From Acutalibacteraceae bacterium (GTDB lineage Bacteria > Bacillota > Clostridia > Oscillospirales > Acutalibacteraceae), in assembly GCA_045651765.1 (NCBI GenBank), contig JAZRSY010000008.1, positions 35,388 through 99,387 of the forward strand: a DNA stretch of 64,000 nt, in the 5' to 3' direction. Shown in pieces: positions 25,179-35,832 of this stretch; within the stretch, counting starts at the first letter, position 1; each line of letters starts with the position of its first letter. The notes beneath the pieces are model-generated. The model did no database searches and had not been told where the DNA came from. It saw only the letters and a list, made by a program, of their open reading frames with translations. The translations under genes were made by a program, and so were the position numbers.

Positions 25179-25207
25179 AAACACGGGGCTTAAACCCCGT
25201 GTTTTTT
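25177..25207. terminator. Bidirectional intrinsic terminator (small ORF on plus, mazF on minus)
   Basis: AAAACACGGGG-cttaaa-CCCCGTGTTTTTT, an A-run/T-run flanked stem between convergent genes. Confidence 0.85.
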
Positions 25208-25565
25208 AATAAAATTTATTATCGGTTAAACCAAAGCTTACCGAAAGCGCCTTGTCTACCATATTCATATCAGGCACATTTAATGTGCCCATTTTTTCTT
25301 TAAGGCGCTGTTTGTCAATTGTTCTGACCTGCTCAAGCAAGATTATGGAATCACGCGCAAGGCCGCAGCCGTCGGCATTAATTTTAATATGTGTTGGCAG
25401 TTTGCTTTTTTCTTGCTGGCTGGTTATGGCCGCCGCAATTACGGTGGGGCTGTAACGGTTACCAACATCATTCTGAATTATAAGCACGGGCCGAACCCCG
25501 CCCTGCTCTGAGCCTATAACGGGGCTTAAATCGGCATAAAATATATCTCCGCGTTTTACTGTCAT
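25206..25565 (-). CDS. mazF: MazF/PemK/EndoA-family mRNA interferase toxin
   Basis: ORF 25206..25589. The ATG at 25565 ([33 protein letters not shown]...LPTHIKI...[14 protein letters not shown]) is preferred, with GGAG 12 nt upstream. It aligns almost residue for residue with my memory of B. subtilis EndoA/NdoA. Confidence 0.9.
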
Positions 25566-25678
25566 TTTTATTTCACGCTCCGAAAACATTTGGTAATTAT
25601 ATTTTTACCCATATATTGCTTTTTTAAGCAATTAATAAAAATATTTTTAATATATTCTATGCGTGAAATTTTTTAAGG

Positions 25679-27199
25679 TTATTCTTCTTCGGCTTCTTCG
25701 GCTTCTTCTAAAAGTTCAAAGTCATCCTGCTCAGGTTCATAATAATCGTATTCTTCTAATTCTTCTAATTCTTCTAATTCATCTATCCTTGCTAAACGGT
25801 TTTGTGAAGCCGTTTTAGCAATTTTTACAATCATTATAATAATTAAAGCCAGAACTAATAAACCACTCACAAAAACAGCGCCAACAAAAATGCGTTCTTT
25901 AACCGTTAATGCTGCAAGTCTTGAAGAAAATTTGCTGTTTTCCAATATTTTAGCCTCTGCTAAATCAACATTAAATTCCGGTGAGCGTTGAACACTGCCT
26001 GTTGTTGAATCGTAACGGAAATAATCTTTTATTTCCGAGTTGTATTCGGCATAAAAAATTAAATAATCGGCATAATTGGGGTTTTCGTATTTAAACACCT
26101 CTACCGAATGGCCGCCCAAAACAGCGGTTGTTTTATAATATCCTTTTGGTGTTTCGGTGTTTGGCACTAAATCCAATAGCACATAATTTTGTGATGCTTC
26201 TTTTAACATTCTGTATTCTTTAAATTCCCCTGTGGCAGAAGTGTATTCAAAATATTTAGTAACACTGCCATCGGCATTTTTTGCCATTACAACAACCTTG
26301 TTGTTAACCTCGTTAACAATTGCAGGCACTTCCAGCGAATTAACCATTGTGCTCGAAAGTGTAAATCTTTCTAAAACGGTGCCTTCGGGGTATTCGTTTG
26401 CTAAAATCCATTTTTCTCCGTTAATTGTAACTTCATATGGATTAATATCAAGTGTTGTGCCATCGGCTGTGGCGCGGTTAATGTTAATAACATATTTTTT
26501 CTGTGTACCGTTGGGTGCGGTAACAACAACAATTCTCTGGTTGGCGCCCTCTTTCATATCGGCGGAGCCCTTCACACTGATTCCTGCGCCGGCATCTTCA
26601 GCAATAGCACTAACCAAAACCTTTGTTATGGAATTATCTATGTTAACATTATAGGTGGTAACATCTTTATTAAAGGCGGGTGTGAGTGGTATATTATTTG
26701 AAAGATAGAGCGTTTTTAAGTTAGCATTACTCGATTTTTGGCTGCTGGTGTCGGCAACGTTAACGGTTGCGTTTGAACCCGATACAGTTATCTGGCCAAA
26801 GCCCCTATCGGGAGCCTGAACATAAGAGGCATCGTAAAACTTGAGCGAACACTGACCAATCTTTTTAGTCTTAAAGGTCATTGTCGCGGAAATGGATTTA
26901 ACCTCACCTCCGGTTAGTGCCATTTGAACTCGATTTGTACCTTTAAGATTTACTCCTGCGGTGGAGGAGGAAACATATTCGAGTATGTTTTCATCGAACT
27001 GCAAAAAACCCTCTGCTGAGTACATTTCTTCATCCGCCGTTATTTTTACGGTAACAGTTAGGGTTGAGCCAACATATAATGAATTATTACTTAGTGAAAT
27101 TGAGGTTGAGCCTGCCGCAAATGTGCTGAAGCTGAATGCCGACAGCACAATTATTAATGACATAACTAAAACTACCGATTTTTTTAATATTGATTTCAT
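25679..27199 (-). CDS. Membrane-anchored surface protein: signal peptide, cohesin-like domain, cadherin-like beta-sandwich, C-terminal TM helix and acidic cytoplasmic tail
   Basis: ORF 25679..27268. The ATG at 27199 (MKSILKK...) follows an AAGAGG RBS and avoids overlap with the upstream gene. The cohesin-like segment reads GSTLTVTVKITADEEMYSAEGFLQFDENILEYVS...CSLKFYDASYV. The cadherin-like module reads LKTLYLSNNIPLTPAFNKDVTTYNVNI...QKKYVININR. TM helix IFVGAVFVSGLLVLALIIIMIV, then the tail ELEELEELEEYDYYEPEQDDFELLEEAEEAEEE. Confidence 0.65.
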   Translation of the reverse strand: MKSILKKSVVLVMSLIIVLSAFSFSTFAAGSTSISLSNNSLYVGSTLTVTVKITADEEMYSAEGFLQFDENILEYVSSSTAGVNLKGTNRVQMALTGGEVKSISATMTFKTKKIGQCSLKFYDASYVQAPDRGFGQITVSGSNATVNVADTSSQKSSNANLKTLYLSNNIPLTPAFNKDVTTYNVNIDNSITKVLVSAIAEDAGAGISVKGSADMKEGANQRIVVVTAPNGTQKKYVININRATADGTTLDINPYEVTINGEKWILANEYPEGTVLERFTLSSTMVNSLEVPAIVNEVNNKVVVMAKNADGSVTKYFEYTSATGEFKEYRMLKEASQNYVLLDLVPNTETPKGYYKTTAVLGGHSVEVFKYENPNYADYLIFYAEYNSEIKDYFRYDSTTGSVQRSPEFNVDLAEAKILENSKFSSRLAALTVKERIFVGAVFVSGLLVLALIIIMIVKIAKTASQNRLARIDELEELEELEEYDYYEPEQDDFELLEEAEEAEEE

Positions 27200-27209
27200 A
27201 ACATACCTC

Positions 27210-29273
27210 TTACTGCTTGATTGTATATTTTTCAAGTATTGCCGCCTGTACCATTGCCAAATCGACAATGCTTATTTTATTGTCCTTAGAAATATCGCCT
27301 GCGGATTTATAAACACCGCTAAGCTCATATTTACCCAAAATTGCCGCCTGTACCATTGCCAAATCAACAATGGTGGTTTTGCCATCGGAGTTAGTATCAC
27401 CCACAACAAGCACTGTAAAACTCTGCTTTTCGGTTCCGGCGGTATCGTAAATTTTAACCGTGTCGCCCGTGCCGATTACACCCGTTGTTTTGGCATTCCC
27501 ATTTTTATCATAAACTGTGGCAGAGCCTTTTTCAACACCAAGGTTTGTTTTAAAATTATCAACCGAGGTTGAAAATGCAACACCCGTTAAAAATTCACCC
27601 GTTTTATAGTTATTACTAATTGTAGGGGTGGGAGTTACGACAGATTCACCTTCGGACAGACGTGCAACACTCAACTTATAAACTCGTTTTTCGCCCGACG
27701 ATGCGGTAACCACAATATCAAAATCGTTATGTCCAACCTTTAGTTGTTTTACGCCTGCACCCTCGACAGAAGCGGACTGTGAACTTGTAACAGCAACGAT
27801 TTCAATAGTATCTACCGGGTACTGAACAATAAGCTCACTCGGTTTTGTTGTATCGTACTTGTTAAAGCCCATTACCGTGTGGTTCTTTACTGTAAGCGAC
27901 TCCAAGAAGTTATTGTTGTTACCTGTTTCTTCAGGTAGCCTTGTAATTTCGGGCATATTCTTATAAACAGGAATATGGAAAACTAAGGAAGAACTCATAG
28001 CCGAACTGTAAGCCTTGGCCAAAAAGTTTGCCTTACCATATGCATCATAAGCGCTGGTGGCGTACTGGTGGTTATAAAGTCCGCCTTCGGGAATAACATC
28101 AAAATCCATGTAATAATATGTATCCTGACCTATCGAAATATACCCTTCAGCATACCATTGTGCGCCACCCGTAATTGATTTTTCACGGGTGTTCCAGGGG
28201 CGGTTATAGCTTGTCTTGCCCGAATCCTCGCCCTTGGCGTACCAAAGGCCACGCTGAACGGCACTAAGCCCACCGCCTTTACTAGCGCCGACATTAAAGA
28301 AATTGAAATAACCTTCGTATCCAACCTCGGTTCCCGAAATGTTTCCACCTTCACCTGCACTGCCCTGCTCTTGCAAAATGTTGGATGCAATGAAAAAAGG
28401 GCTAACCCTAGAAGCCTTGGCCGCGCTCATAATTGCATCGGCATAGGTCATATTTTCGTTATCAGGTGGCGATGGCAAAGCAGCATTCATAAATGTGCCA
28501 TTAAGCATTAGCATTAGGTTTTCTTTGGTGTCATACTTTTCATCATACGCCTGTGAAGAAAACATAAAAATACTTTGAGAATCCAAGAAATTTCTTGGGT
28601 CGGTGTAATATTCAACAACCGTTTTAGAGGCTGCAACCCAGCCGCCCGAATCAATCTCATACCATTCGCCCGTTGCCGAATTATAAGCCTCCGGGTCAAG
28701 TGATTTCCAAGAATCCGGCTTGCTACCATGTACGGTCTTTTTACCGGTCTCGCTTTCGGCAGCAATAACATCGGACCATTCAAGGTTTGTTTGGTCGGCA
28801 TAAAACACCCAGTTAGGATAAAGCGAATGTAAATCGCGAAGCTTTATCTTATAACTCTCGGGGAAGTTTTGCTGGGTCAACCAATTTTCAAAATCGTTGT
28901 CCTGCACATAATTTCCCAAAAGTTTTATTCTGCCGCTATATGCATAGCCTATGTTAGCATAGTTGGGGCCATAACCTATTTTATACCACATATCCCCGTC
29001 GCCGTCTATTCCGGTGCCAAAGGCTTTTACCACGGTTCCTTGTTCCAGAGATGCTAAAAATTGGCTACTGTTATCGTGTTCAACCTCATGCCCTGTGGTG
29101 CCGGGTTTTGAAAATATGTTTGCCTTGCTTGTGGTTTCGGCATAAACAGGGAATTCCACAGCAAAAGCCGAGAACGAAAACTGTATTAAAATTAGGCTAA
29201 AAACCAGCAAAAATGCGGTTAATTTTTTTGCAATAATTTTAGTCATATCCATATCCTTTTTTTCAAAATTCAT
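27210..29273 (-). CDS. Secreted dockerin-bearing GH73-like peptidoglycan hydrolase (SH3b-like, glucosaminidase-like, cadherin-like and type-I dockerin domains)
   Basis: 687 aa with a signal peptide (the start could be M1, M8 or M10). SH3b-like segment ANIFSKPGTTG...GDMWYKIGY. Glucosaminidase-like core with SPFFIASNILQEQGSAG...YFNFFNVGA. Cadherin-like module LESLTVKNHTV...RVYKLSV. C-terminal dockerin with two Ca-binding loops, DTNSDGKTTIVDLAMVQAAIL and DISKDNKISIVDLAMVQAAIL. Confidence 0.7.
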   Translation of the reverse strand: MNFEKKDMDMTKIIAKKLTAFLLVFSLILIQFSFSAFAVEFPVYAETTSKANIFSKPGTTGHEVEHDNSSQFLASLEQGTVVKAFGTGIDGDGDMWYKIGYGPNYANIGYAYSGRIKLLGNYVQDNDFENWLTQQNFPESYKIKLRDLHSLYPNWVFYADQTNLEWSDVIAAESETGKKTVHGSKPDSWKSLDPEAYNSATGEWYEIDSGGWVAASKTVVEYYTDPRNFLDSQSIFMFSSQAYDEKYDTKENLMLMLNGTFMNAALPSPPDNENMTYADAIMSAAKASRVSPFFIASNILQEQGSAGEGGNISGTEVGYEGYFNFFNVGASKGGGLSAVQRGLWYAKGEDSGKTSYNRPWNTREKSITGGAQWYAEGYISIGQDTYYYMDFDVIPEGGLYNHQYATSAYDAYGKANFLAKAYSSAMSSSLVFHIPVYKNMPEITRLPEETGNNNNFLESLTVKNHTVMGFNKYDTTKPSELIVQYPVDTIEIVAVTSSQSASVEGAGVKQLKVGHNDFDIVVTASSGEKRVYKLSVARLSEGESVVTPTPTISNNYKTGEFLTGVAFSTSVDNFKTNLGVEKGSATVYDKNGNAKTTGVIGTGDTVKIYDTAGTEKQSFTVLVVGDTNSDGKTTIVDLAMVQAAILGKYELSGVYKSAGDISKDNKISIVDLAMVQAAILEKYTIKQ
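27238..27372 (-). repeat. Direct 33-nt repeat (32/33 identical) encoding the two dockerin helices
   Basis: ATTGCCGCCTGTACCATTGCCAAATC[G/A]ACAATG at 27238-27270 and 27340-27372, 102 nt (34 codons) apart. Both copies encode IVDLAMVQAAI. Confidence 0.9.
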
Positions 29274-29368
29274 CCATTGTAATTATATTGTTTTTAGGCG
29301 GTTATGTCAACCTATTTGGCCAAATTACCTTTATTTTACACCAAAAGTTTTTTGCTGTTTTTTTAATG

Positions 29369-29430: not shown

Positions 29431-30819
29431 GTGGATAAATATAAAAGCTTGGCGCGTAACACCGCCGTTTTTGCAATAGGCACCTTTGGCTCTAAAATAC
29501 TTTCGTTTATAATGGTGTTTTTTTACAGCCGCGCCATGCAAACGGCCGAGTTTGGCACACTGGACATTATTATAAACAGCGGCAGCCTGTTATTGCCCAT
29601 TGTAATGCTTGGCATACAAAACGCCATTATTCGTTTTGGACTGGATAACGACTATAAACAAAGTGATGTTTTTTCGGTCGGAATAATATCGGTTTTGTTG
29701 GGTTTTTCATTTGTATTGTGCTTTAGCCCGTTAATTGTTAGGGTTCAAGAGTTTAAAAATTATATATTTTTGTTATATGGTTATGTTTTTATGTCGGCCA
29801 TGCGGCATATTTGCAGTTACTTTGTAAGGGCCATTGGCAAGGTGAAACTGTTTGCGGCCGACGGCATTTTTTCCACCTTTATGACCTGCCTGTTAACAAT
29901 AATATTTTTACTGCCCTTAAAAATGGGTATTAGGGGTTATTTATTAGCCATAATTTTGGCCGATTTTTGCTCGGTTTTGTTTTTAACTTTTTTTGGTGGG
30001 CTTTTAAAATATGTTAATTTTAAAGGGCTTAAATTTTCGCTCATTAAAAAGATGTTGCTCTTTTCGCTACCACTCATACCAACCTCGCTTTTGTGGTGGG
30101 TTATAAATGTGTCCGACCGCTATTTTGTTCAATATATGGTTAGCGCCTCGGCCAATGGGCTATACTCGGTGGCATACAAGGTGCCCACAATTTTAACACT
30201 GGTTTCCACCGTGTTTTTAGATGCTTGGCAAATTTCGGCCGTAACCGAAAACAGCACCCGAAGTCGCAACCACTTTTACAGCAATGTTTTTAAATCGTTT
30301 CAGGGTGCCGTGTTTGTAGTATCTTCGGGGCTTATACTTTTTGCAAAATTTATTACAAAAATTTTATTAGATGCCGATTATTACGCTTCTTGGCAATATA
30401 TTCCCGTTTTAATGCTGGCCACGGTTTATTCTTGTTTTGTGGTGTTTTTAGGCAACATTTACCTTGCCGAAAAACGCAGCGTTTCCACCTTGATTACAAC
30501 ACTGCTTGGCGCCGTGCTTAATTTGATATTAAACTTTGTTTTAATAAAACCGCTTGGTGTTCACGGAGCGGCTGTGGCCACCTGTATTAGTTATTTTGTG
30601 GTTTATGCAATAAGGGCTGTCGATATTAAAAGGCGAAACAAAACGATAACCTTTTCTTCGGGCATAATTTTAATAAACTCTTTAATAACCACCTCGCAAA
30701 TTATATTAATGCTACTTGAACCGCCTTATTGGGTGGCTTACCAAATAGTTTGCTTATGTTTATTAATTGCCGTAAACTACAAGATGCTTTTAGATGTTAT
30801 TAAAAAAATATTGAAATAA
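29431..30819 (+). CDS. Polysaccharide biosynthesis / oligosaccharide flippase family protein (MOP superfamily)
   Basis: 462 aa with a GTG start after AAGGAG and about 12-14 TM helices. The N-terminus MDKYKSLARNTAVFAIGTFGSKILSFIMVFFYSRAM is typical of Wzx/Polysacc_synt proteins. Confidence 0.8.
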   Translation: MDKYKSLARNTAVFAIGTFGSKILSFIMVFFYSRAMQTAEFGTLDIIINSGSLLLPIVMLGIQNAIIRFGLDNDYKQSDVFSVGIISVLLGFSFVLCFSPLIVRVQEFKNYIFLLYGYVFMSAMRHICSYFVRAIGKVKLFAADGIFSTFMTCLLTIIFLLPLKMGIRGYLLAIILADFCSVLFLTFFGGLLKYVNFKGLKFSLIKKMLLFSLPLIPTSLLWWVINVSDRYFVQYMVSASANGLYSVAYKVPTILTLVSTVFLDAWQISAVTENSTRSRNHFYSNVFKSFQGAVFVVSSGLILFAKFITKILLDADYYASWQYIPVLMLATVYSCFVVFLGNIYLAEKRSVSTLITTLLGAVLNLILNFVLIKPLGVHGAAVATCISYFVVYAIRAVDIKRRNKTITFSSGIILINSLITTSQIILMLLEPPYWVAYQIVCLCLLIAVNYKMLLDVIKKILK

Positions 30820-31272: not shown

Positions 31273-31800
31273 CTATTTTACGGCAAGAATTTTAATTTTA
31301 TCTATATTAAATCCACTTTGGGCTATGGCAATATCTTGTATTTGCACCGTTTGGGCACCGCTTAAAGACTCGCCCTTTACCACAACATTAATATCGTTTT
31401 GGCCTATAATGGCTATGGCATCGGGGAATCCTTTGGCTTTAAGCAGGTTTTCAATGTTGGTTTCCTTTTGTTGCCTTAAGGCTAAATCTGCCGCCGTTTT
31501 AGAGGCCTCGCCCAAGGCGGCAGCATCGCCCCCTGCATTTTTTATGGCTTCGGTAATGTTTTCTTGTGCCGCTTTGCGAGATGCCTCGCGTTCGGCACGG
31601 GCGGTTTCAAAATAATCAGCCACACTGCCCGAAGTTTCAACCAACTCACCGTTTTCGGAGTTTACATATTGGGCTTCGCCTAAATATTTAGTTCCACTAT
31701 TGCCGGAATATTTCATATTAAACCAAACCGCTGCACCCAGTGCTAAAACCATCACCGCCAAAACAATTTGACTTTTTCCTAATACCTTACCTTTTTTCAT
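31273..31800 (-). CDS. spoIIIAH: Stage III sporulation protein AH
   Basis: 175 aa with an N-terminal TM helix, a charged linker, and a C-terminal YscJ/FliF-like ring domain (NLLKAKGFPDAIAIIGQNDINVVV). It is the last gene of the spoIIIA operon. Confidence 0.85.
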   Translation of the reverse strand: MKKGKVLGKSQIVLAVMVLALGAAVWFNMKYSGNSGTKYLGEAQYVNSENGELVETSGSVADYFETARAEREASRKAAQENITEAIKNAGGDAAALGEASKTAADLALRQQKETNIENLLKAKGFPDAIAIIGQNDINVVVKGESLSGAQTVQIQDIAIAQSGFNIDKIKILAVK

Positions 31801-31801
31801 T

Positions 31802-32353
31802 TTAATTGCCTCCCTTATTTACTATGTTAATGCGTTTAGATGTTATGCCCAATGCCGCCGTTACGGCATTTTTTATTTTTTCCTCGGTGGCTTTGGCCGA
31901 TGCCGAGGGTGCCGAATAAACAATGCTTACACCTCTAACCTCGGGGTAATATTCATACACCGGCACCGCCTGCTCGTTGCCGGCCGAATCGGTTATAATT
32001 ATGTAGTCGGTTTCTTGGTCGGACTCTTTGTCGGTGCCGTTTTGATTGCTTTTTTCGGTAGTGCTGCTTTTATTATTAACACCGTAAGAATATTTTTTAC
32101 CGCCTTCAAGCGTTAATAAAACCGTTATATCACGGCTGCCTGTTATGCTGCTAACAATTTTTTTAACATTTTTTTCAAGTTCTTGACGATAATTTTCGGC
32201 ATCGAAAACACCGCTCTCGGCGGTGGTGTTTTTTTCTTGAGCGGGCGTAAAAACCGAAGAAAGCCCCACCAATAAAATCCCAATTAACCCCACAATTAAA
32301 AGGGTTTTTCCGTTTTTTAAATTAGATTTAATTTTTAAGAATAAATCATTCAT
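31802..32353 (-). CDS. spoIIIAG: Stage III sporulation protein AG
   Basis: 183 aa with an N-terminal TM helix and a C-terminal ring-building motif region (PEVRGVSIVYSAP...). Its position in the operon is consistent. Confidence 0.85.
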   Translation of the reverse strand: MNDLFLKIKSNLKNGKTLLIVGLIGILLVGLSSVFTPAQEKNTTAESGVFDAENYRQELEKNVKKIVSSITGSRDITVLLTLEGGKKYSYGVNNKSSTTEKSNQNGTDKESDQETDYIIITDSAGNEQAVPVYEYYPEVRGVSIVYSAPSASAKATEEKIKNAVTAALGITSKRINIVNKGGN

Positions 32354-32783
32354 TTATCACTTCCACCTCGCAGGCATCTATTACCGATAAAATGCTTTCC
32401 TTTATTCCTGCGCCCGAATTATTTGTAAAAACCGTTATTCTTTTAATAAATATGCTGTTATCCTCGGCAATATCCGTAATAACCGAAATTTTATTAAAAT
32501 CATGGCCGTTTTGTTTTAAAATTTGTGTTGTTAAATATTTGGCTTGGGTTTTTGTAACATTGGCCGATGCCGCAATAATTTCATTTTGAGAATTAGCAAC
32601 GGTAAAATTAATTTTAGCCCCCTTAACACCCTTTAAGCCCATAATTATTACCGATAAAAATATAAGTGAAAAAACAAGTTTAATGCTTTTTTCGGTGTTA
32701 CCTTTAGGGCGCAACATATACACCGCGCCCAGCAACACCGAGCAGGCCGAAAAGGCCAAAACAAAACTTAAAATCGTTTTCAT
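32346..32783 (-). CDS. spoIIIAF: Stage III sporulation protein AF
   Basis: 145 aa with two N-terminal TM helices. Its operon position is between AE and AG, and it overlaps both neighbours. Confidence 0.8.
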   Translation of the reverse strand: MKTILSFVLAFSACSVLLGAVYMLRPKGNTEKSIKLVFSLIFLSVIIMGLKGVKGAKINFTVANSQNEIIAASANVTKTQAKYLTTQILKQNGHDFNKISVITDIAEDNSIFIKRITVFTNNSGAGIKESILSVIDACEVEVINE

Positions 32784-33874
32784 GCCGCACCCGCCTTCAT
32801 TAATACAGCCAGCGATATTATAAATAAAGCCGCAGTAAAAAGCATTACACCAATAATTAACGAAACTACCGAATCCACCGCCTTTAATGCTGCCGGGGGT
32901 GGCTCTTTAAACATAATTTGGGCGGCAATATCGGCGCCGTTTAACACAATTCGCCAAAGGGTTAACTTTAAAATTACGGGCAAGGTTGTTGCCGCTATGA
33001 CAAAAACAGCATATATTCCAACGCCGCTTTGCAACAGTTTTACCGAGCTGCCCAGGGTGGATACCACCTCACTGAGTGCCGTGCCTGCCACAGGCACAAA
33101 ACTACCCACCATAAACTTAACCGTTTTAATGCCTACGGTGTCGGCCGCCGAGCCAATTGCAGAACTGACCGAAAGCAGCCCTAAAAACACCGTAAAGGTA
33201 AAGGTTAAAATATAGTTAGCCCCTTTTTTTATGGCCGCAGCCAATCGCACCCCGGGCGACACATTGCTTAAAACTCCGCTTAAATAAAGGGCCAACTGAA
33301 CTAAGCCCAGCGGCACCACAATAAAAGCCAATATTTGCACGGTAAATTCGGCAGCCACCAACAGCATACCGCCCGACTGCATAGCGGTGGCAACATTACC
33401 GCCCGAGGCCACAATGCCGCAAAAGGCCGGAATAAAAGAAAGCATAAACACACCGCTGCCCTTAATGGCCGACCCTGACGCTGATATATCCGACAGCACA
33501 GGCACCGTAATTATTAAGGTTAAAATTATTGTAAAGGCCGTGTTAACACCGTCGTTTTGACTGAGCGTATTAAAAACCGCCCATAAAATTAACACCGAAA
33601 TTACGCTTAAAAATATGGTTTTAAGCCCCGAAAAGCCATTAACAAAAATATCTTTTAAAAGCGAAAAAATATTGCCGGGCGCCTTTTCGACCCATTCGGT
33701 GTCGTACGGGGTTGCCCCTAAATCGTTTAAAATTTGCCGGGTTTCTTTGTTTGGTATTTTGGTTATTTCTTCCATACCAATGGCATTTAATTGGTCGGTG
33801 TAAACATTTTCGTCCGCCTTTGCAGGTACCGAAAAAATGAGCAAAAAAATTAAAATAATTATTATTCTTTTCAT
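32780..33874 (-). CDS. spoIIIAE: Stage III sporulation protein AE
   Basis: 364 aa with a signal peptide followed by a polytopic membrane domain. It is the largest membrane component of the operon. Confidence 0.85.
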   Translation of the reverse strand: MKRIIIILIFLLIFSVPAKADENVYTDQLNAIGMEEITKIPNKETRQILNDLGATPYDTEWVEKAPGNIFSLLKDIFVNGFSGLKTIFLSVISVLILWAVFNTLSQNDGVNTAFTIILTLIITVPVLSDISASGSAIKGSGVFMLSFIPAFCGIVASGGNVATAMQSGGMLLVAAEFTVQILAFIVVPLGLVQLALYLSGVLSNVSPGVRLAAAIKKGANYILTFTFTVFLGLLSVSSAIGSAADTVGIKTVKFMVGSFVPVAGTALSEVVSTLGSSVKLLQSGVGIYAVFVIAATTLPVILKLTLWRIVLNGADIAAQIMFKEPPPAALKAVDSVVSLIIGVMLFTAALFIISLAVLMKAGAA

Positions 33875-33875
33875 T

Positions 33876-34259
33876 TCATAAAATTCCCGATATTACATTA
33901 AATAAATCTTTAATAAGCGGCACGCAAAGTAAAAAAATTGCCACCTTGCCTGCAAGTTCAGCCTTAGACGCTATGGCCGAAAAACCAAAATCACGGCAGG
34001 CATCGGCCACAAACTGCGTTATGTAACCGAGCGCCACCGTTTTTAAGGCTATGAAAAAATATTTTTGGTTAACCCCCGCCGTTTTCAATTCCGAAAACAG
34101 TTGCATTAAGGGGTTAATTACAGCAACCGACACCGCAATTATTAAACCGCACCCAACCACCACCGTTATTGCAGTTGCATATTCTTTTTTATATTCCAAA
34201 AAAATTACACCCACAAAGGCAGCCACAATGCACAAGGCAAATATTTTAAAAATATCCAT
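33876..34259 (-). CDS. spoIIIAD: Stage III sporulation protein AD
   Basis: ORF 33876..34271. The internal ATG at 34259 (MDIFKIFALCIVAAF...) matches the SpoIIIAD N-terminus and abuts the AC stop. It has 4 TM helices. Confidence 0.85.
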   Translation of the reverse strand: MDIFKIFALCIVAAFVGVIFLEYKKEYATAITVVVGCGLIIAVSVAVINPLMQLFSELKTAGVNQKYFFIALKTVALGYITQFVADACRDFGFSAIASKAELAGKVAIFLLCVPLIKDLFNVISGIL

Positions 34260-34260
34260 T

Positions 34261-34455
34261 TTAAAGTCCAAACAAGCCCTTTACCGTTGTGAAAAGTTCG
34301 GCTATTACCTTAACCACCATTAAAAGCACAACCACCAAACCTGCAAGGGTTGTTAGCATTGCCTGTTCCTCACGCCCCGAGCGCACCAAAACCTGATTAA
34401 GCACCGTAACAATAATGCCTATTGCGGCAACCTTGAAAATAAAATCTACATCCAT
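34261..34455 (-). CDS. spoIIIAC: Stage III sporulation protein AC
   Basis: 64 aa and 2 TM helices. MDVDFIFKVAAIGIIVTVLNQVLVRSGREEQAMLTTLAGLVVVL is very SpoIIIAC-like. Confidence 0.88.
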   Translation of the reverse strand: MDVDFIFKVAAIGIIVTVLNQVLVRSGREEQAMLTTLAGLVVVLLMVVKVIAELFTTVKGLFGL

Positions 34456-34465
34456 TTTTTGCCTC

Positions 34466-34924
34466 CTACACCAATAAGACCGCTATGCTAAGGCCCGAAA
34501 ACAACCCCAACATTTTATATAATTTAGATTTTTTAATATACTCATTGTCGGCCGAGGCCCACCTTTGTTTTAAAATATCGGCATAGGTTTCACACCTTTT
34601 AATTTGCGATTCTATATTACCCATGCCAAGCTCGGCAAAAAATTCCTCAATAATTTTTTGGTCATCTTTATTAAGGTGGCCGTTTTTAATTTGCACACAA
34701 AACGGCTTTTTAAGGGTTAAATAATTCTCTTTGCCCAAAATGGTGTTTAAAATATCGTAAATTTCGGCCGCTGTGCCCGAAATTTTTTGGCCAATGCACA
34801 AGACCGAAAAATAAAACCACTCTAATGCATCTGCCCTGTTTTTAAGTTGTAAAGAATTTTTTCGGCCCAATAAAAATCCGCTTAAAACAATAAAAGCAAG
34901 ACCTATAATTTTAATTATCCACAT
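34466..34924 (-). CDS. spoIIIAB: Stage III sporulation protein AB
   Basis: 152 aa with N- and C-terminal TM helices around a soluble GspF-like domain. Its position in the operon is consistent. Confidence 0.82.
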   Translation of the reverse strand: MWIIKIIGLAFIVLSGFLLGRKNSLQLKNRADALEWFYFSVLCIGQKISGTAAEIYDILNTILGKENYLTLKKPFCVQIKNGHLNKDDQKIIEEFFAELGMGNIESQIKRCETYADILKQRWASADNEYIKKSKLYKMLGLFSGLSIAVLLV

Positions 34925-35832
34925 ATTTCCCCCTCTAAAATTAAAGGCGGTTCGCCCACCTTTTTTAAAAAAACAACCTTATTTATAACGCCGCTTTCAA
35001 TTAATTTTTTTGTAACACCCCTCTTTTTAAGCTCGGCCACACTGCCAATGTGCGCCGTGGTTACAATAAAAACTCCGGTGTTAATGCTTTGCATAACACC
35101 TAAAAGTTCCTTTTCGGTTCCAATTTCGTCAAAGGCTATAACCTCGGGCGACATAGAGCGTAATGCTACCTCAATTCCCTCGGGTTTGGGGCGGCCTGTT
35201 ATAACATCGGTGTTAAATCCAACTTCATTTTGCGGCACGCCACAAGTTGCGGCGGCTATTTCGCCACGGGTATCTATCACCGAAACCCTATAACTTTTAC
35301 CGGTTTCTCCATTCGAAAGGCTCCTTACAAAATCTCGCAAAAATGTAGTCTTGCCACTGCCGGGCGGGCCACAAATTAAAACCGAGCCACCGCTATAATT
35401 TTGGGTTAAATTTTTTGCCACCCCAATAATTTGGTGTGAAATTCTAATATTTACCGATGTTATGTCGCAAAACTTACCCTGTCTGAAAACACCGCAAATT
35501 CCCGCTCTGTTGCCAAACGGCATGGTTATATATCCATTCAAAATTTCGTCGAGGTGCGAATAAACCGAATTATTGCAAATAAGTCTGGCCACCTCAAGTA
35601 AATCGGCCGCCGCCACTAAAACCGAATCTTGTTGCGGAGTGAGATAAAGTTCTGACGTCTTGGTTAAAAAATATGTTTTACCGCCAAACACAACAGCCAA
35701 ACCGCCACCCGCCCTGAGCCTTATTTCCTCTGTTTTTGCCTGTATGTTTAGCGGTAACAGCTTAAGAACACTTGCAAATTTTTGCGGCAAAAACTCACAG
35801 GCCGAAACATAACCTTTTGTTTTCGTTTCCAT
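34915..35832 (-). CDS. spoIIIAA: Stage III sporulation protein AA (secretion-type AAA ATPase)
   Basis: 305 aa. Walker A GPPGSGKTT and Walker B-like VIAFDEIG. It is the first gene of the eight-gene operon. Confidence 0.9.
   Translation of the reverse strand: METKTKGYVSACEFLPQKFASVLKLLPLNIQAKTEEIRLRAGGGLAVVFGGKTYFLTKTSELYLTPQQDSVLVAAADLLEVARLICNNSVYSHLDEILNGYITMPFGNRAGICGVFRQGKFCDITSVNIRISHQIIGVAKNLTQNYSGGSVLICGPPGSGKTTFLRDFVRSLSNGETGKSYRVSVIDTRGEIAAATCGVPQNEVGFNTDVITGRPKPEGIEVALRSMSPEVIAFDEIGTEKELLGVMQSINTGVFIVTTAHIGSVAELKKRGVTKKLIESGVINKVVFLKKVGEPPLILEGEICG

Follow-up and report, generated by a model that had tools for sequence, protein, structure and literature searches.

Cellulosomes, amylosomes and a few toxin complexes are known to be assembled by means of cohesin-dockerin pairs. 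What, then, might such a pair hold together in a stretch of bacterial chromosome that is devoted to other tasks? This question is raised by 64,000 nucleotides of an Acutalibacteraceae genome (contig JAZRSY010000008.1; the whole stretch is called the window here), in which two adjacent genes on the minus strand encode a predicted secreted peptidoglycan hydrolase of the glycoside hydrolase family 73 (GH73) type with a C-terminal dockerin (gene A, 27210..29273) and a type I membrane protein with a cohesin (gene B, 25679..27199, 506 amino acids, identical to the database protein P0001). No cellulosomal, fibre or starch enzyme was found among the large open reading frames (ORFs) of the 64-kb window, as an initial annotation of this DNA had noted for cellulosomal enzymes. 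The window contains one cohesin and one dockerin, which is not the make-up of a cellulosome or amylosome scaffoldin, and the gene A product is its sole protein with a double calcium loop. Here, we describe the two proteins and the conservation of their genes, and propose that the cohesin protein probably serves as a dedicated membrane tether of the hydrolase. All features of the pair given below lie on the minus strand.

The stop codon of gene A (TAA, 27212..27210) and the ATG of gene B (27199) are separated by a 10-nucleotide spacer, and the AAGAGG ribosome-binding site of gene B (27206..27211) overlaps that stop codon, 6 nucleotides before the ATG. The short gap and the overlapping site suggest that the two genes are translationally coupled. 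A sigma-70-type promoter, TTGACA-17-TATAAT with 12 of 12 matches to the consensus, lies directly upstream of gene A (29282..29310). Because the TATAAT of this promoter ends only 8 nucleotides ahead of ATG 29273, the first codon of the longest ORF (687 amino acids), the true start of gene A is probably ATG 29246, which is preceded by AAAGGA. The resulting 678-residue version is identical to the publicly annotated protein P0053; residue numbers of A nevertheless follow the 687-residue ORF throughout. From its sequence, the gene A product has a cleavable signal peptide (residues 10-38, 29160..29246, with cleavage between AFA and VE; helix 2-24 in the model) and no transmembrane helix. The signal peptide is followed in order by an SH3b-like domain, the GH73 region, a cadherin-like module, a small unassigned module and the dockerin.

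The dockerin of A (residues 625-680, 27234..27401) was recognised by Pfam PF00404 (Dockerin_1) with 37.2 bits against a cut-off of 22.9. The match spanned model positions 2-57 of 57, and 23 of 23 homologues matched as well. The initial annotation had assigned two calcium loops of the DxNxDGxxxxxD type to this domain; the first, DTNSDGKTTIVD, fits the pattern exactly, whereas the second, DISKDNKISIVD, is a DxSxDN variant. Both loops lead into an identical helix, IVDLAMVQAAIL, and the two repeats, DTNSDGKTTIVD-LAMVQAAILG and DISKDNKISIVD-LAMVQAAILE, have the dockerin architecture of two tandem segments of about 22 residues, in each of which an EF-hand-like calcium loop (D1, D/N/S3, D5, D12) leads into a helix. 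The predicted fold superposed on dockerins at 1.5-2.1 Å, and Foldseek matched it to 4uyp_B and 2vn6_B with template-modelling scores (TM-scores) of 0.79-0.83.

The central region of A (residues 120-441, 27951..28916) was assigned to the GH73 glucosaminidase fold from NCBIfam SagB, PDB 6fxo/5wqw and Foldseek. An AlphaFold model of A was built on 23 homologues, with a predicted local distance difference test (pLDDT) score of 86.3, and was compared with the PDB. Its 14 best structure matches were all GH73 enzymes, among them SagB (6u0o, 6fxp), Atl (6fxo), Acp (8yxn, 5wqw), AtlE (4pi8) and LytB (7pj4), with E-values of 3e-11 to 2e-5; the TM-scores by target were 0.74-0.76 for the best matches, SagB 6fxp and Atl 6fxo, and the top match was SagB within the SagB-SpdC complex. 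PDB sequence matches were obtained with the Staphylococcus aureus Atl glucosaminidase (6fxo, E 2.5e-4) and Clostridium perfringens Acp (5wqw). Residues 275-439 partially matched NCBIfam SagB (1.7e-12), and because the score was 47 bits against the SagB cut-off of 425 bits, A is not counted as a member of the SagB family. Glu302 (ILQEQG, codon 28368..28370), the predicted general acid, aligned with HETG of Acp, and Tyr404 (HQYATS, codon 28062..28064), the tyrosine of the GH73 'YATD'-type motif, aligned with HQYAT of Atl and Acp; both residues were invariant in the 23 homologues. The N-terminal helical part of the region carries the conserved pattern FE..L..Q.FPESYK..LR.LH..YP.W.

The SH3b-like beta domain of A (residues 39-117, 28923..29159) was detected with our own family hidden Markov model (HMM; 4e-25), and the AlphaFold model places beta strands at residues 34-111. 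Pfam SH3_3 (PF08239) gave no match in the window protein at E<=0.1, and 19 of 23 homologues matched it in the aligned region. The cadherin-like beta-sandwich (residues 458-538, 27660..27902) scored 24.8 bits against Pfam PF12733 (cut-off 24.2) and was found in 23 of 23 homologues. Between it and the dockerin lies a small conserved alpha/beta module of about 75 residues (547-621, 27411..27635), defined by our own HMM (7e-30) and the secondary structure of the model. This module had no family match and is missing in homologues L034, L040, L044, L058 and L059; it could be a dockerin stabiliser resembling an X-module.

Gene B begins with a signal peptide (residues 1-28, 27116..27199, ending between TFA and A; helix 2-23 in the model), followed by the cohesin module (residues 30-152, 26744..27112), which was assigned from Pfam, homologue matches and Foldseek. 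In the family alignment, made of homologues of about 500 amino acids, 10 of 26 matched Pfam Cohesin at E<=0.01. The AlphaFold model of B had a pLDDT of 80.7 overall and >90 in residues 30-150, and Foldseek ranked cohesins first: the C. perfringens GH84C cohesin (2w1n/2jh2) gave E-values of 1e-8 to 2e-6 and TM-scores by target of 0.72-0.76, and 2w1n, 2jh2, 1qzn, 5nrk and 2xdh were matched at probability 1.0. The next matches were cellulosomal type I and type II cohesins and a non-cellulosomal cohesin of Archaeoglobus. By predicted structure and family-level HMM matches, the N-terminal domain of B is a cohesin, as had been read from its sequence.

The cohesin is followed by a cadherin-like beta-sandwich (residues 155-243, 26471..26737; PF12733, 39.2 bits against 24.2; 26 of 26 homologues). 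The initial annotation regarded it as the same module as in A; the two are homologous but not identical, with 29% identity over 49 residues. A membrane-proximal beta-rich domain of about 160 residues, termed X (251-410, 25970..26449), was delimited from the alignment and from the model (pLDDT 75-90). It carries the conserved motifs NPYEV, GYYK and YYRYD..S.QR.PEF, and it had no PDB sequence match and only weak Pfam matches (DUF4367, DUF4179). A single transmembrane helix (residues 437-458, 25826..25891; from model and sequence) has a K/R-rich stop-transfer sequence on its cytoplasmic side, and B contains no LPXTG motif. The topology of B is therefore type I, with the cohesin outermost and the tail in the cytoplasm. 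The tail (residues 459-506, 25682..25825) has 21 D/E and 4 K/R among 48 residues and is predicted to be disordered (pLDDT <50). The poly-acidic tail reported earlier holds for this protein and is not universal in the family: 30 of 68 homologue tails were acidic and 19 of 68 were short and basic.

Certain tail ends recur among B homologues. Lachnospiraceae-type proteins end in ~D-[LI]-E-F-I-D-L (L036, L043, L050, L052, L053, L066, L067), and close relatives of the window's B end in EEEEF (L001). Two homologues (L074:5488-8361, L076:5232-7961) have Gln/Gly/Tyr-rich low-complexity tails of >500 residues that end in DDDFEFxFID. The recurrent ends may act as linear motifs that a partner in the cytoplasm recognises.

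Is the pair a fixed unit? Four B homologues (24-41% identity) were found directly after a gene for an SH3/cadherin-like/dockerin protein, in four different genomic contexts. For an unbiased scan, one genome per bacterial or archaeal species was searched with the hydrolase alignment as the only seed, which yielded 487 relatives, of which 80 loci were kept. They came from gut and rumen metagenome-assembled genomes of Acutalibacteraceae, Oscillospiraceae, Lachnospiraceae (Roseburia, Agathobacter, Faecalimonas, Lachnobacterium), Anaerovoracaceae and some 'Bacilli' bins. Scoring with domain HMMs made from both family alignments left 74 evaluable loci. A cohesin-like gene lay directly downstream of 53 of the 59 dockerin-bearing hydrolases, mostly after a gap of 8-17 nucleotides. 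All 53 genes encode a cohesin, and most add the cadherin-like module, the X domain and a C-terminal transmembrane helix. In five of the six exceptions, a divergent upstream gene encodes a signal peptide, a cohesin, a Thr-rich linker, a further domain and a transmembrane helix, and one such protein reached 36.6 bits with Pfam Cohesin; in the sixth, a B-like gene is present that encodes another, Ig-like domain at the N-terminus. Counting both orientations, the dockerin-bearing enzyme had a neighbouring cohesin-transmembrane gene in 58 of 59 loci. A full-length B profile was also run against the library, but giant proteins carrying cadherin-like repeats in tandem dominated the matches, and the search was uninformative on the size of the B family.

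The divergent variant belongs to a Ruminococcus/Oscillospiraceae subgroup, in which the cohesin is joined by a long Thr/Pro linker to another domain and a transmembrane helix (L034:1700-3337, L040:1680-3353, L044:1759-3366, L046:1544-3211 and L064:964-2532, all on the minus strand of the locus).

The genes flanking the pair vary; the commonest neighbour, encoding a ClpC-like ATPase, occurred in 13 of 80 loci. Because conservation across the 80 loci does not extend to a third gene, the A-B pair is an autonomous two-gene module, and its conservation as a unit, which the initial annotation had put forward for checking, is borne out in related genomes with different flanks.

We then asked whether the dockerin and the cohesin evolve together, using mirror-tree and helix tests on 51 cognate pairs. 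The pairwise divergence of the dockerin correlated with that of the cohesin (r 0.53) more strongly than with that of the GH73 (0.31) or cadherin-like (0.28) domain of its own polypeptide. Given GH73 divergence, the partial Mantel r between dockerin and cohesin was 0.455, a value reached in 0 of 2000 permutations. It was the highest of all domain pairs and exceeded the others in 93.5-100% of bootstraps; a correlation was also seen between dockerin divergence and domain X of B (partial r 0.34). The divergences of dockerin and cohesin thus track each other beyond phylogeny. Furthermore, within a protein the two helices of the dockerin share 77% identity, while the same helix is only 36% identical between orthologues. 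Such within-protein identity is a hallmark of the symmetric, dual-binding-mode cellulosomal dockerin that tracks one cohesin. From the co-variation, the concerted helices and the operon linkage, a specific cohesin-dockerin contact is most likely and would be the most economical reading.

Taken together, these results suggest the following model. The domain identities, the operon structure, the conservation of the pair and the co-variation of dockerin and cohesin are observations; that the two proteins bind, which bond is cut, where the enzyme acts and what it does for the cell are inferred. A and B make up a self-contained operon of two genes under a strong promoter of the housekeeping type. 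A would be exported by Sec and cut the glycan strands of peptidoglycan as a GH73 endo-β-N-acetylglucosaminidase, its SH3b-like module helping to engage the wall. The ectodomain of B would stand on the outer face of the membrane, with the X domain, the cadherin-like module and the cohesin at its tip. The calcium-loaded dockerin of A would bind this cohesin through a species-specific tether, so that the enzyme is leashed at the membrane and inner wall of its producer and does not diffuse away. The likely purpose would be controlled cleavage of the cell's own wall during the trimming or release of glycan strands, wall turnover or daughter-cell separation. We assign a probability of roughly 0.6 to this reading, that is, remodelling of the own wall by a membrane-leashed autolysin with a dedicated cohesin-dockerin tether. 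Because the anchor is a transmembrane helix beneath the wall and the ectodomain comprises only three small beta modules, we estimate that the leash more likely reaches into the producer's inner wall than outward. The idea that a docking system holds the hydrolase on its producer is accordingly retained from the initial annotation, with the membrane and inner wall as a likelier site than the outer surface. The cohesin fold, the GH73 fold and the conservation of the unit, on which that core interpretation depended, were each found, and the interpretation is supported.

The nearest functional precedent is SagB-SpdC of S. aureus (6u0o), in which the membrane partner positions the GH73 enzyme so that nascent strands are cut at a defined distance from the membrane (bioRxiv 10.1101/2020.05.21.109470). 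In both systems a GH73 glucosaminidase would be kept at the membrane by a membrane partner, and SagB is both the top structural and the top NCBIfam match of the catalytic domain of A. However, SagB has its own transmembrane helix and SpdC is an eight-helix CAAX-protease-like protein, whereas here a soluble enzyme is combined with a single-pass partner whose cohesin is a beta-sandwich module. B is unrelated to SpdC, and the likeness would be one of function, not of family membership.

Several observations weigh against the tether model. Pfam PF01832 (Glucosaminidase) matched neither the window protein nor any of its 23 homologues, and A is taken for a GH73 endo-β-N-acetylglucosaminidase from its predicted fold and conserved Glu and Tyr, with the bond specificity read from the fold. 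On B, Pfam Cohesin (PF00963) gave 23.0 bits, just below the cut-off of 24.1, in a partial match to model positions 4-59 of 139. As to the substrate of A, the data are neutral between own and foreign wall. The mirror-tree correlation can stem from shared rate variation. Finally, among the 15 dockerin-less hydrolases, eight still had a cohesin-like transmembrane partner directly downstream and seven did not. Because these eight loci retain a partner, the partnership may rest partly or originally on something beyond cohesin-dockerin contact. In four of these eight loci the enzyme ends right after the catalytic domain, and the partners consist of a signal peptide, a cohesin-like domain, an acidic linker and a transmembrane helix. 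Minimal partners of 204-264 amino acids with an acidic or Thr-rich linker were found at L071:5344-5994, L083:5095-5709, L087:5016-5810 and L088:5137-5874, about 10 nucleotides downstream of hydrolases with several SH3 repeats and no dockerin. These minimal partners scored below Pfam Cohesin, their domain identity coming from our own HMM. For the dockerin-less pairs, direct contact with the enzyme, a pairing older than the dockerin and recent loss of the dockerin are possible.

The dockerin-less loci bear most directly on a rival reading, in which B is mainly a regulator or positioner: its cohesin-like domain would touch A at the catalytic or the SH3 part and so activate, inhibit or orient the enzyme, and the dockerin would be a later add-on that strengthens the association. 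The retained partners, including the minimal ones of enzymes that stop after the catalytic domain, fit this reading, as does the co-variation of the dockerin with the X domain. Against it, the strongest co-variation in dockerin-bearing proteins is that of dockerin with cohesin, the concerted evolution of the dockerin helices is most simply explained by a classical cohesin-dockerin contact, and the minimal partners fall short of the Pfam threshold. We therefore regard the regulator reading as rather unlikely. A broader idea, which we put forward tentatively and with a low probability, is that throughout gut Clostridia one clade of GH73 autolysins has an ancient, dedicated partner, a cohesin-type single-pass membrane protein that acts as an inside-out positioning device. 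The ectodomain of this protein would set the site of the cut, in most lineages by way of the dockerin and in the dockerin-less ones by touching the enzyme directly, and the tail-end motifs EEEEF and D-L-E-F-I-D-L would couple it to a cytoplasmic partner, for example the division or elongation machinery.

Other roles were considered for the pair. The pair might be a weapon or a minimal 'lyticome', used for contact lysis of neighbouring bacteria or for harvesting peptidoglycan as food. Lysozyme-like enzymes with dockerins have been noted in rumen metagenomes and read as means of attack or defence (PMC6487960), and a review has proposed the 'lyticome' (PMC6403190); these enzymes share with A the fusion of a peptidoglycan-active module to a dockerin. 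Theirs, however, are dockerin-enzyme fusions envisaged on multi-enzyme scaffolds that attack other cells, and in this literature we found neither a conserved operon with a dedicated membrane cohesin nor an enzyme of the GH73 type. The anchor of B is a membrane helix under the cell's own wall, not an outward wall-linked or S-layer anchor. Moreover, no immunity-like third gene is conserved, the promoter is of a constitutive type, and the single-copy pair sits in a core chromosomal context and has been inherited across several families, not in a patchy or mobile manner. A weapon is thus an improbable explanation. Wall remodelling specific to sporulation (engulfment, cortex processing or mother-cell lysis), which the initial annotation had listed among the possible roles, would agree with the spoIIIA operon 2-6 kb away in the window and with the many carrier lineages that form spores. 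The perfect sigma-A-type promoter does not have the pattern of a sporulation sigma factor, and the spoIIIA linkage is missing in the other contexts examined; we give this role little credence. A phage or prophage lysis cassette, made of an endolysin and an accessory protein, is suggested by the occurrence of GH73 and SH3 domains in endolysins and by tblastn matches to the pair in GenBank 'Bacteriophage sp.' records. Those records are unverified virome scaffolds with bacterial housekeeping genes (LtaS-like sulfatase, YfhO, ClpC, RadA, PurM, PurD), A carries a Sec signal peptide and no phage genes surround the pair in the window, which makes this explanation hardly credible. Because of the vegetative-type promoter, the core setting, the vertical spread over families and the absence of a conserved immunity-like third gene, a housekeeping autolysin is a better fit than a weapon, a mobile element or a factor confined to sporulation.

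The phage-labelled records are L089 (MT836697.1), L090 (MT836742.1) and MT839502.1, all entered as 'UNVERIFIED: Bacteriophage sp.' from human faecal viromes; their flanks also encode GT2. A phage origin of the pair was rejected, since by their flanking genes these records look like bacterial DNA that was carried into virome preparations.

The surroundings of the pair in the window are those of a chromosomal core, with genes for DnaK, NrdD, PGI, SecA, ApbE, asparagine synthase, FtsK, ClpC and sugar transporters together with the spoIIIA operon. A PemK/MazF-like toxin gene (Pfam 1.7e-35; 25206..25589, minus strand) lies 89 nucleotides downstream of gene B, and the gap between them holds no antitoxin-sized ORF on the minus strand. 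The toxin gene also follows the pair in the close relatives L001-L003 and L009, and in 7 of 80 loci overall. On the other side, a MOP-family flippase gene (Polysacc_synt; 29431..30819, plus strand) diverges from gene A across a shared intergenic region of 157 nucleotides; its position is kept in L001-L003 and not in more distant loci. The spoIIIA operon (31273..35832, minus strand) follows, with AA, AE and AH recognised by Pfam and an Asp23-family gene next to it, and its presence suggests that the source organism is likely an endospore former. A general functional link of the pair to the spoIIIA operon or the flippase was rejected, as neither is conserved beside the pair outside close relatives.

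How does the pair compare with other cohesin-dockerin systems? In C. perfringens, cohesin-dockerin modules have a use outside plant-fibre degradation: they link secreted enzymes, whose substrates are host glycans, with each other. Non-cellulosomal pairs are established in this Gram-positive gut bacterium (PDB 2w1n, 2jh2), whose GH84C cohesin is also the best structural match of the B cohesin. In contrast, one peptidoglycan-acting enzyme would here be joined to a dedicated single-pass anchor encoded in the same operon. The anchoring scaffoldins of cellulosomes and amylosomes resemble B in that a cell-bound cohesin takes up a dockerin enzyme, and their dockerins share the two symmetric calcium-loop repeats. 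Unlike them, the present system is monovalent and lacks carbohydrate-binding modules, fibre or starch enzymes and a scaffoldin cluster; it is a fixed bicistronic unit with a predicted GH73 wall hydrolase as cargo. The papers checked on the Ruminococcus bromii amylosome describe no equivalent of the A-B pair. For Ruminococcus, a recent study (bioRxiv 10.64898/2026.02.05.704116) predicts single-cohesin proteins with a transmembrane anchor. Clostridial and Bacillus GH73 autolysins with SH3b domains, such as Acp (5wqw/8yxn) and Atl (6fxo), combine SH3b-type wall binding with GH73 catalysis as A would, and their catalytic Glu and YAT(D/S) motif align with those of A. They attach to the wall by their own binding repeats only, however, and have neither a dockerin nor a cohesin partner gene. 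A conserved operon of a GH73-dockerin enzyme and a cohesin-transmembrane protein was not found in the searchable literature; a prior mention in Peer et al. 2009, on non-cellulosomal cohesins, is possible.

The control of autolysins by membrane partners, such as FtsEX and SpdC, is an active topic separate from that of cohesin-dockerin docking. The locus described here would join the two in a one-to-one leash for a peptidoglycan hydrolase. The operon occurs in hundreds of species from the Lachnospiraceae, Oscillospiraceae, Acutalibacteraceae and related groups, and these groups jointly account for much of the gut microbiota. If the tether model is true, it would account for the stray cohesin and dockerin genes that occur singly in non-cellulolytic Firmicutes, and it would offer protein engineers many cohesin-dockerin pairs that have co-evolved and are orthogonal by nature. 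For the bacteria themselves, it would represent a new means by which Gram-positive anaerobes keep autolysins in check, and, if inside-out positioning also proves true, a new mechanism of autolysin control made of cellulosome modules.

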